Part shown: positions 44,835 to 47,800 of the stretch, piece by piece
Layout of the letters: every line of letters starts with the position of its first letter
Position numbering within the stretch: position 1 is the first letter of the stretch
Source: Escherichia coli
Lineage (GTDB): Bacteria; Pseudomonadota; Gammaproteobacteria; Enterobacterales; Enterobacteriaceae
Strand: one strand, 5' to 3'
Length of the DNA: 64,000 nt
Assembly (NCBI RefSeq): GCF_001677475.2
Contig: NZ_CP015229.1
Position numbers: made by a program

Positions 44835-47800
44835 TAAGGAAACGAGATGACCCGTCCGATACAGGCCAGCCTCGATCTACAGGCATTAAAACAGAATCTG
44901 ACCATTGTCCGCCAGGCCGCGCCGCACGCGCGCGTCTGGTCGGTGGTAAAAGCGAACGCTTACGGGCACGGTATTGAGCGTATCTGGAGCGCGCTCGGGG
45001 CTACCGATGGCTTTGCATTACTTAACCTGGAAGAGGCAATAACGTTACGTGAGCGCGGCTGGAAAGGACCGATCCTGATGCTGGAAGGATTTTTCCATGC
45101 TCAGGATCTGGAGATTTATGACCAGCACCGCCTGACCACCTGCGTACACAGCAACTGGCAGCTCAAAGCACTGCAAAATGCACGGCTAAAAGCCCCGTTG
45201 GATATTTATCTTAAAGTGAACAGTGGGATGAATCGGTTGGGCTTCCAGCCCGATCGCGTGCTTACCGTCTGGCAGCAGTTGCGGGCGATGGCGAATGTTG
45301 GCGAAATGACCCTGATGTCGCATTTTGCCGAGGCGGAACATCCTGATGGAATTTCCGGCGCGATGGCGCGTATTGAGCAGGCGGCGGAGGGGCTGGAGTG
45401 TCGGCGTTCGTTGTCTAATTCGGCGGCGACTCTGTGGCACCCGGAAGCGCATTTTGACTGGGTTCGGCCTGGCATTATTTTGTATGGCGCTTCGCCGTCC
45501 GGTCAGTGGCGTGATATCGCCAATACCGGATTACGTCCGGTGATGACGCTAAGCAGTGAGATTATTGGTGTCCAGACGCTAAAAGCGGGTGAGCGTGTGG
45601 GCTACGGCGGTCGCTATACTGCGCGCGATGAACAGCGAATCGGCATTGTTGCCGCAGGATACGCCGACGGTTATCCGCGCCATGCGCCTACCGGTACTCC
45701 TGTTTTAGTGGACGGCGTGCGCACCATGACGGTGGGGACCGTCTCGATGGATATGCTGGCGGTTGATTTAACGCCTTGCCCGCAGGCGGGTATTGGTACG
45801 CCGGTTGAGCTGTGGGGCAAGGAGATCAAAATTGATGATGTCGCCGCCGCTGCCGGAACGGTGGGCTATGAGTTGATGTGCGCGCTGGCGTTACGTGTCC
45901 CGGTTGTGACGGTGTAACTTGTTGTAAGCCGGATCGGAGGCAGCGTCTTCTGGTTGCGAAAAAATCATACATCCGGCTGGTCAGCAACTGTAGTTGTTGA
46001 TGTGACAGAGCCATTTCCCATGATAGTGTCCATTACAATGATGGACACTATTTCCCCGGAACCTGAGTTCACCGCACAGGCGTTCTACATAAAACGCTTA
46101 CGTTTCATTGTTGACTCGAACTCGACTTCAGATAAATCACGCTTCACCCTTGATGCAGATTCGGGTTCATGTTCAGAATGTTGATTAACAGGCTGCGAGT
46201 CCTGTTGTCTTTCCAGACTCAACAGGCCCAACTGCTGATTCAGGAGCTCCAGGTCCTCTTGTACCTTCACGCGCTCCAGGAGTACCGGGTCCTCCAGGTG
46301 TTCCAGAGCCTCGAGGTCCAGTTCCTCCTGGTACTCCAGCTTCTCCAGCTTCTTCCGGTTCACCAGGCCCTCCTTGTGCAAAAAGTCCAAAAGGTCCTTC
46401 AGGCCCTGCTGTTTTTTCAGGCCCTCGACGGCTTTGAGCAGCGTCGAGAAATTGTCTTTGTCCCACGGGTTACCATTACAGCTAAACACCTTCAGGCTCT
46501 GAGGCTGCGGCACCTGTACCGTTTTAAACTTGTTTTCTCCACAGTAGTAAATTATTAGTTTGGGCGGCAGCCGTGGTGAAGAGAGCAAATCGTTACAAGA
46601 ACAGTCAAATACTTTCAGGCGAGTCAAGTTCTCCAGCATCTCATCAGGTATTAAGCTAATATTGTTGAAAGCGCAGCGCAGTGTATACAGGTACTGGGGC
46701 ATCGACGGCGGTAAAAATTGCAATAAGTTTTCAGAACAGTCAATCACTCTCAGGTTAGCCGACAGCTCAGGCAGCCAGATAATATAGTTTTCATCGCACT
46801 TCAGTACCATCAGTTTCGGGGGCTGCACCTTCGGTAACAAGATCAAAAAGTTCTCCATACATTCAAGCACTCTCAGCCCCTTTGGCATTACCTCCGGTAA
46901 CGCGGTCAACACGTTTCTACTGCAGTTAAATTCAATCAGATGTGGAGGCAAATTTTCAGGGAGGGAAGTCAGTCCAAGGTTGCTAAGATCGAGCATACTC
47001 TCTCTTGTTATGAGACATTCCTTCATTCTGCGCAATGCTTCTGCCCGGTCTTCAATCTGGCTTGCTGACTGGTTTTCTTTCAGGATATCTTCCTTGATTT
47101 CTTTCAGCCTTTCTTTCAGGTCTTCTTGGGGGATTTCTGACTGTTTGTTTTGCTGGTTTTCTTCCAGGATTTGGTACAGGTTTTTTTGCAGGTTTTCTTG
47201 CAGGTTTTCTTGCAGGTTTTCTTGCAAACCATCCTTCTGTATAGCCCATTCGCACCATTCGGCGACCATCATGAATTCGTTATGTTGCTGATTCAGGGGA
47301 GTTCCCAACGTGATGATGGTATTGTTGTCCACCTGTATGTTCACTTTGCCCGCGATACTGAGGTCAATGATCTGCCAGGGGGCATCACCCCAGCTGAATT
47401 TTTGCGGGCTGAGATACTTCATGTTCTGCAAAATTTGATTCTTGAGTTCCACCGACAGGAAGAGCCGCCCTGGCGGGCGTCGTACGCCTGGGTTAACGGA
47501 AGATGGGGGAATGGCGGGGGCGAATGGGCGGATGTCTTTAAAGCTGGCCATAATGCTACGTATCCTTGAAATAAATATCCTCTGGCAGCGCCGGAGACGT
47601 GAATGTGGTCACCGCAAAGGAGCCACAGGACGTTATTTGCGCTGATATAACTACTCATCGTTGACTTTTTCCCTGGTCAGAAATGCCGTGTCGGGTCTGG
47701 TACATGCTGTATTACGGCCCAGGCAGCTCTGACGTATTAAAGAAAATACGAGAGCGAACGACCCGGAAATAATCGTTATTAAGCAAAGGAATATCTATAA

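Follow-up and report, generated by a model that had tools for sequence, protein, structure and literature searches.

A perfect palindrome in the spacer between dadX and cvrA of Escherichia coli very probably belongs to the relic of an IS66-family left end: its surroundings match intact insertion sequences (IS) of this family in sequence, in spacing, and in the order of parts. The relic belongs to a known kind of element, of which it is a fossil and not a complete example, and the palindrome within it is unannotated but ordinary. We describe the palindrome in a window of 64,000 nucleotides from contig NZ_CP015229.1, and we follow it through complete E. coli genomes, outgroup species, and intact IS66 relatives. 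Taken as a whole, we consider likely an account in which a subterminal IS66 stem-loop, which would have exerted RNA-level control at the start of tnpA, survives in a fragment of about 95 bp with no selected role at its present locus.

The palindrome and IS66-family left ends

The palindrome reads ATAGTGTCCAT-TACAATG-ATGGACACTAT. As a preliminary description of this DNA had reported, its arms (46023-46033 and 46041-46051) are 100% complementary and are separated by 7 nt. The same description correctly placed it between the dadX stop codon (45915-45917, plus strand) and the TAG stop codon (46085-46087, minus strand) of an open reading frame (ORF) with leucine-rich repeats (LRR); beyond it, cvrA occupies 48172-49908 of the minus strand. 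There is a single occurrence of the pattern in the window. Perfect inverted repeats of such size exceed chance expectation: counting arms of 11 bp or longer and loops of 3-10 nt, the window holds 6 against 0.075 expected from first-order Markov shuffles. As RNA, the palindrome folds with -17.6 kcal/mol on the plus strand (13-14 pairs including wobbles) and with -14.3 kcal/mol on the minus strand. In the records examined, the palindrome is left unannotated, an Rfam covariance-model scan of 45700-48400 gave chance-level matches only (E > 0.5) with none at the palindrome, and a promoter and terminator scan did not call it. Features of the locus are collected in Table 1.

Table 1. Features of the dadX-cvrA region, in window coordinates
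Feature	Position	Strand	Basis
Extended REP-like hairpin immediately behind dadX (arms of the core: 45927-45934, 45971-45978)	45919..45988	+	Fold
AGCGTCTT, left copy of a possible 8-bp target duplication of the ~2.2-kb islet; tentative	45942..45949	.	Empty-site alignment
Very probable IS66-family left-end relic: terminal inverted repeat (tip GTAAGCG, 46101), hairpin leader, ATG, residual tnpA nucleotides	46008..46101	-	Homology
Perfect 11-7-11 palindrome; very probably an IS66-family left-end stem-loop (nt 51-79 from the IS tip)	46023..46051	-	Repeat and hairpins of relatives
LRR ORF, 488 aa, IpaH/YopM-like repeats, without NEL ubiquitin-ligase domain	46085..47551	-	Domain scan: LRR_4 only
IS1414/IS256-family miniature element of ~100 bp, at the end of the islet toward cvrA; terminal inverted repeats of 12 bp	48022..48126	.	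K-12 annotation: partial IS1414
AGCATCGC, right copy of the possible 8-bp duplication; tentative	48138..48145	.	Empty-site alignment

The strand that was once the sense strand of tnpA is the minus strand of the window. Read on that strand from 46101, the sequence opens with GTAAGCGTTTTATG..., in agreement with the 5'-GTAA tip of the IS66 terminal repeat (GTAA(G/C/A)CG in all elements compared), and continues as GTAAGCGTTTTATGTAGAACGCC...GGTTCCGGGGAA-ATAGTGTCCAT-CATTGTA-ATGGACACTAT-C-ATG. Intact IS66-like ends share with it the tip, the distance of about 50-51 nt to the first arm, and an ATG straight after the stem. Identity of the window across the first 84 nt reaches 81% with a Pantoea element that we term "type A" (L123), 79% with a P. 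agglomerans copy, and 71% with ISCro1. The homology is far above background: local alignment of window positions 46102-46008 with L123 scores 106, and shuffles score 26.4 ± 3.9 (maximum 41).

Database searches led to the same family. A 59-nt query spanning the palindrome returned weak matches (85% over 41 nt) to the starts of IS66-like tnpA genes on many plasmids; in the one plasmid match that was inspected, 3 nt separate this palindrome from the downstream tnpA ATG, and its distance to the GTAA terminus is about 51 nt. A longer query returned matches from the tip through the hairpin in Pantoea agglomerans, Enterobacter asburiae, P. ananatis, and Shigella virulence plasmids. The BLAST match in a P. 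agglomerans sequence (H182) extends over 89 nt with 77.8% identity (E=7e-10).

Complete elements fix the position of the hairpin within the IS. A complete copy of ISCro1 (locus L096) measures 2699 bp, carries tnpA-tnpB-tnpC, ends in GTAACCGG... and ...CGCTTAC, and is bordered by an 8-bp duplication, GTCCCAGT; this copy confirms that the hairpin region is the left end of the element. A search for TnpA relatives in viral contigs supplied 49 loci. In every intact relative examined, the hairpin begins about 51 nt from the tip of the terminal inverted repeat and ends 3-6 nt before the tnpA start (ATG or GTG), and it occupies this position in every distinct upstream sequence examined whose TnpA is 54-100% identical to that of ISCro1. 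The type A element occurs at no fewer than 6 different insertion sites (>=6), is multi-copy on plasmids of Pantoea stewartii DC283, and encodes a TnpA with an HTH_Tnp_1 domain. One subgroup among these, "type B," builds the hairpin at this position from another inner stem (TTTT/AAAA), which points to conservation of the structure. In a more distant relative (L146), whose TnpA is 40% identical, ATGGACAC appears as direct, not inverted, repeats.

ISCro1-like elements, among them the unnamed multi-copy elements of the P. stewartii plasmids, thus resemble the relic in their GTAAGCG start, in 71-81% identity across the left end, and in a hairpin at nt 51-79 followed by ATG. They differ from it in completeness: the relic is about 95 bp long, lacks the tnpA, tnpB, and tnpC genes as well as a right end, and is not flanked by an 8-bp duplication of its own. 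Its tnpA remnant has suffered a deletion of 7-9 nt right after the ATG, and about 90 nt are left between the relic and the dadX stop. Past about 46008, the sequence resembles neither the interior nor the right end of an IS, and comparison of 45918-46007 with the interiors of ISCro1 and of the Pantoea IS gave nothing above shuffles.

A GTAAGCC at 45924 was considered as the right end of a 178-bp miniature element. This reading fails, since the ancestral REP-like hairpin (E. albertii GTATGCCGGAT) is the better match and no target duplication is present: the 8 bp beside 45924 and beside 46101 differ. We also considered a 7-bp direct repeat, ATTTCCC, around the palindrome, and judge it coincidental; its right-hand copy (plus strand) is conserved IS leader, and the other copy is unique to the dadX-cvrA locus and polymorphic.

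Gain and loss of the islet

The uninserted state of the locus can be seen in CFT073 (phylogroup B2), in E. albertii, and in a divergent E. coli, where dadX and cvrA converge over about 50 nt and the ancestral spacer holds one REP-like hairpin. The spacer is short in Citrobacter and Enterobacter as well, and the palindrome is absent outside E. coli in 80 cross-species dadX neighborhoods. Against the empty site, the dadX-side junction of the acquired DNA falls within about 45924-45980, most likely near 45950, which is 43-100 nt (about 70) to the left of the palindrome. The left half of the extended hairpin after dadX matches the ancestral REP-like hairpin; ancestral spacer sequence restarts at the right-hand 8-bp copy listed in Table 1 and runs on to the cvrA stop. 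The ancestral site has AGCGTCGT once, and the islet has a version on each side (AGCGTCTT and AGCATCGC). The exact junction near 45950 is tentative. The acquired DNA of about 2.2 kb has a G+C content of about 45-50%, compared with 55-58%.

The preliminary description had set the palindrome at the boundary of the LRR segment; the junction analysis instead places it inside the acquired DNA. Its term "insertion scar" was loosely right, in that the palindrome is a mobile-element fossil; the palindrome does not mark the islet junction. It had also named the spacer of strains without the LRR gene as the comparison that could overturn its reading, and that comparison does so. E. coli K-12 MG1655 has lost the LRR gene body and retains the last ~74 nt of the LRR ORF together with the palindrome, with identical arms, a different loop (TAAAAGG), and a partial IS1414 directly after. 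The LRR-less spacer of O157:H7 EDL933 likewise keeps the palindrome, with one arm substitution, and its deletion ends at a different point. Since the deletion end-points differ and the LRR remnant or the palindrome is kept, K-12 and O157 represent secondary, independent deletions and not the uninserted state. Both deletions are anchored at or in the miniature element on the cvrA side.

Out of 5426 complete E. coli genomes, 4235 have one full-length copy each of the palindrome region and 834 have most of the LRR segment; roughly 3400 genomes keep the palindrome after loss of the LRR gene body.

The LRR gene itself bears the mark of the IS. Its last five codons (R-K-R-F-M) and its TAG stop fall within the IS66 terminal repeat (IS nt 1-17, GTAAGCGTTTTATGTAG), so that the present C-terminus of the protein was created by the IS insertion. 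Homologues of the LRR protein are found in E. coli and Shigella only, and the next best matches are the LRR domains of NEL ligases, with 31-33% identity; with homologues so confined, there are no independent flanks for comparison.

From these observations, a likely sequence of events can be proposed. The LRR effector-like gene would at one time have had an IS66-like element at its 3' end, and the transposase genes of that element would have been deleted later. The LRR gene and the IS debris would then have entered the short ancestral dadX-cvrA spacer as an islet of about 2.2 kb. Many lineages, including K-12 and O157, would subsequently have lost the LRR gene body and retained the relic.

Function in the parent element and at the locus

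In intact elements, the position of the hairpin suggests its function. The hairpin ends 3-6 nt before the start codon and its 3' arm holds a GGA and an ATG, so that occlusion of the tnpA start is its most likely native function. The GGA is the only Shine-Dalgarno-like sequence (AAGGA in type B). The ATG in the 3' arm of most members comes in one of two arrangements: it is in frame with tnpA, or it begins an ORF of 5 codons that closes with a stop overlapping the start of tnpA (ATG GAC ACT ATC GYN TGA). The stem-loop in the mRNA would cover the translation-initiation region of tnpA and keep transposase expression low. The motif is absent from the right end of ISCro1, by reading of the sequence, which argues for expression control rather than end recognition. 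Weighing against the mechanism, a search of the IS left ends, hairpin loop of intact elements included, gave no consensus match to a sigma-70-like promoter. Stem-loop control of tnpA in the parent element, proposed by analogy with IS10, IS50, and IS200, is in our view about as likely as not. A broader version is put forward tentatively, at slightly under an even chance: the hairpin may be a hitherto undescribed cis-regulatory element, widely conserved in one subfamily of IS66, that gates tnpA translation, possibly through the 5-codon leader ORF with its stop overlap (ATGA/GTGA). Our literature search found nothing relevant on a role of the IS66 leader hairpin or on the dadX-cvrA spacer.

Conservation of the arms can also be read at the level of DNA. 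The palindrome may have been a double-stranded operator for a protein encoded by the IS66 element, such as a helix-turn-helix TnpA, and would then be an orphan operator in the chromosome. We consider this unlikely, and keep a DNA operator for an IS protein in the parent element as a live alternative. The arms are far more conserved than the surrounding leader, with 7 of 11 pairs invariant across elements whose TnpA proteins are 54-100% identical; the motif of L146 takes a direct-repeat form, and TnpA has an HTH domain. Other features suit an operator poorly. Type B elements have a hairpin in the same place with another inner-stem sequence, and one pair shows an exchange of G-C for A-U: at stem pair 4, 6 sequences have G-C, 2 have A-U, and 4 have A·C. 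This weak covariation falls short of significance, with 125 of 500 shuffles scoring at least as high. Half-site centers 18-20 bp apart with variable spacing (loops of 7-9 nt) are ill matched to a fixed dimer, and the coding or start function of ATG-GAC-ACT may account for part of the arm conservation.

For the copy at the dadX-cvrA locus, the most likely reading is that of a neutral relic with no selected function, which we infer from polymorphism among ten haplotypes: segregating sites number 2 of 22 in the arms, 3 of 7 in the loop, and 22 of 138 in the noncoding flanks. The two arm changes affect the same pair from opposite sides, one leaving a wobble only in the plus-strand RNA and the other only in the minus-strand RNA. 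Among 5426 genomes, none carries the compensated double mutant (T>C plus A>G in the same pair); the best candidate has one mismatch and is in fact a single mutant. Less likely is that E. coli co-opted the fossil copy as the 3'-end structure of the mRNA for the LRR effector-like protein. Where the LRR gene is present, for example in strains of O145:H28 or Shigella flexneri, the LRR 3' UTR reaches the hairpin after 33 nt, and the hairpin could incidentally stabilize the mRNA; it is at most an incidental 3'-UTR hairpin.

A rival reading gives the palindrome a selected role at the locus, as a noncanonical, possibly bidirectional terminator, or as a hairpin that protects the 3' ends of the convergent dadAX and LRR transcripts. 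To this we give little credence. Its attractions are a stable hairpin between convergent genes, close behind the LRR stop, and retention of that hairpin in the many genomes without the LRR gene body. Against it, the hairpin is followed by no U-tract on either strand (tails UUCCCCGG and CAUGGGAA), and the terminator scan passes over it; with neighboring sequence TTCCCCGGAA on the plus strand and CATGGGAAAT on the minus strand free of T-runs, the preliminary description was right that this is no classical intrinsic terminator. In addition, the K-12 Term-seq data in the supplement of Adams et al. 2021 (PMC7815308) give dadAX 3' ends at 1240019/1240020 (plus strand). Mapped through the K-12 locus (L004), these fall at window positions 45987/45988, where the REP-like hairpin has its base, and the palindrome starts 35 nt farther downstream; among the ends listed for 12400xx-12403xx in the same tables (PMC7815308), none falls at the palindrome on either strand. 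Another Term-seq study has no entry for the dadX-cvrA locus. The arm change of the O157:H7 lineage is present throughout that lineage and is uncompensated, and arm diversity in the ten haplotypes is not below that of the flanks. Finally, IS homology fully explains the origin of the palindrome, and deletions from the miniature element on the cvrA side explain its retention.

Two further proposals are already contradicted. Arms of 11 bp around a 7-bp spacer resemble the core sites of tyrosine recombinases (Xer, integrase), and the palindrome lies within an acquired segment; the preliminary description had raised a recombination site, here one marking the insertion junction of the LRR segment. 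This is very improbable, because the palindrome is 43-100 nt inside the acquired DNA and not at the junction, LRR-less strains carry it, neither another half-site nor a partner site occurs in the window, the annotation around the corresponding locus of three reference genomes shows no recombinase gene, and the IS66 leader accounts for the sequence. Weaker still, with next to no probability, is a dispersed REP/BIME-type repeat of the host: the adjacent hairpin (45927-45978) is REP-like, but the palindrome has no resemblance to the REP consensus, which is of the GCCGGATG type, and a search for other copies, as the preliminary description had advised, found a single full-length copy per E. coli chromosome, all other matches being leaders of IS66-family copies. 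The reading of the palindrome as boundary, recombination site, or operator in the preliminary description is largely refuted.

Related systems and meaning

Stem-loops over the start of a transposition gene are known from other insertion sequences. They underlie fold-back inhibition in IS10 and protection from read-through in IS50. For IS200, a published account (PMC4513863) describes a stem-loop in the 5' UTR that occludes the translation start. IS200, IS10, and IS50 share with the IS66 proposal a stable stem-loop over the Shine-Dalgarno sequence or start of the first transposition gene, near the left end. The IS66 hairpin, with its proposed role, has no sequence relationship to them.

The Shigella virulence plasmid pINV offers a parallel for the locus. 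This IS66-type left end is found some 250 bp downstream of ospG and matches at three places on each plasmid, and the type III effector genes of pINV sit amid IS debris much as the LRR effector-like gene at dadX-cvrA is flanked by IS fragments. The islet differs in being chromosomal, between dadX and cvrA, and its LRR protein has no NEL ligase domain.

Outside annotation, the palindrome matters little. Within it, the dadX-cvrA spacer of most E. coli, including K-12, holds an unannotated end fragment that very probably derives from an IS66-family element, where RefSeq lists a partial IS1414 only. The K-12 state of the locus is a secondary deletion of the islet of about 2.2 kb, not the ancestral arrangement. 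The stop codon of the LRR effector-like gene is supplied by an IS fragment, and the gene may thus be truncated at its 3' end. For genome scans, the case advises caution: perfect palindromes that lack T-runs and lie beside accessory genes are often fossils of IS leaders. For the family, it draws attention to a stem-loop that one IS66 subfamily conserves over the start of tnpA.

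Insertion and deletion at the dadX-cvrA islet

The ~2.2-kb acquired islet that carries the LRR gene between dadX and cvrA has diverged 8-bp direct repeats on either side. CFT073 and E. albertii, which show the site without the islet, hold a single AGCGTCGT within a REP-like hairpin. Such an arrangement would be consistent with transposition-type insertion of the islet into a REP, but the match is weak. Near one end of the islet lies an IS1414/IS256-family miniature element; Stx phages and plasmids, the latter numbering in the hundreds, carry dispersed copies of it. K-12 and O157 lost the body of the LRR gene through independent deletions. 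In K-12, the miniature element is reversed in orientation and sits directly at the deletion junction, and in O157 the deletion endpoint falls within it; together, these positions suggest IS-mediated adjacent deletion or inversion.

Features of the islet and of a related plasmid locus
Feature	Location	Strand	Remarks
8-bp direct repeat, dadX side	window 45942-45949		AGCGTCTT; diverged
LRR protein gene	window 46085-47551	-	
IS1414/IS256-family miniature element	window 48022-48126		~100 bp; 12-bp terminal inverted repeats
8-bp direct repeat, cvrA side	window 48138-48145		AGCATCGC; diverged
IS66-type left end matching the window relic	Shigella flexneri pINV locus (L097) 3507-3600		~250 bp downstream of ospG, near ipaH9.8

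Just beyond ymgM in K-12, Adams et al. 2021 (PMC7815308) record a strong bicyclomycin-sensitive (Rho-dependent) termination region at 1240513 (+), with ~43-fold read-through. It follows that in K-12 a + strand transcript runs through both the IS1414 remnant and ymgM and is fairly active. The termination site is antisense to cvrA, and its equivalent lies at about window 48350. RefSeq labels cvrA a pseudogene without a C-terminus in CFT073, EDL933, and GPT24-02; the 3′ end of the gene in these strains nonetheless aligns with that of other strains, and the label may have arisen during annotation because the 3′ flank differs.

Inverted repeats and related IS66-type ends

Besides the palindrome of the IS66-family relic, the window contains 5 further perfect inverted repeats, whose arms are 11-14 bp long: 1484-1515 (14-bp arms, no T-run 3′ of the repeat), 5159-5183, 16988-17025 (AT-rich, 14-bp arms, 10-nt loop), 25151-25177, and 30179-30204. 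The Shigella virulence plasmid matches the IS66-type left end at 3 places per plasmid; the copy in the table has a degraded 3′ arm, AAGTGGACACTAT. A distant IS66-like element on a viral contig (IMGVR_UViG_2910425090_000009), whose TnpA is 40% identical to that of ISCro1, carries ATGGACACT twice at about nt 380-430, as direct repeats 18 nt apart. These occupy the position of its relatives’ inverted repeat, and the second copy forms the tnpA start.

Features of the LRR gene

In the homologue search, the LRR protein was confined to E. coli and Shigella, and its variation between strains was unusually high (73-93% identity and 412-486 aa among full-coverage matches). The protein contains ENLQ-type and acidic repeat tracts. 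Beyond its own group, it is closest to NEL E3 ligases, with whose LRR domains it shares 31-33% identity. Since a domain search found no NEL domain in the protein, and since the stop codon is supplied by the IS66 fragment, the LRR gene may be a 3′-truncated effector gene.
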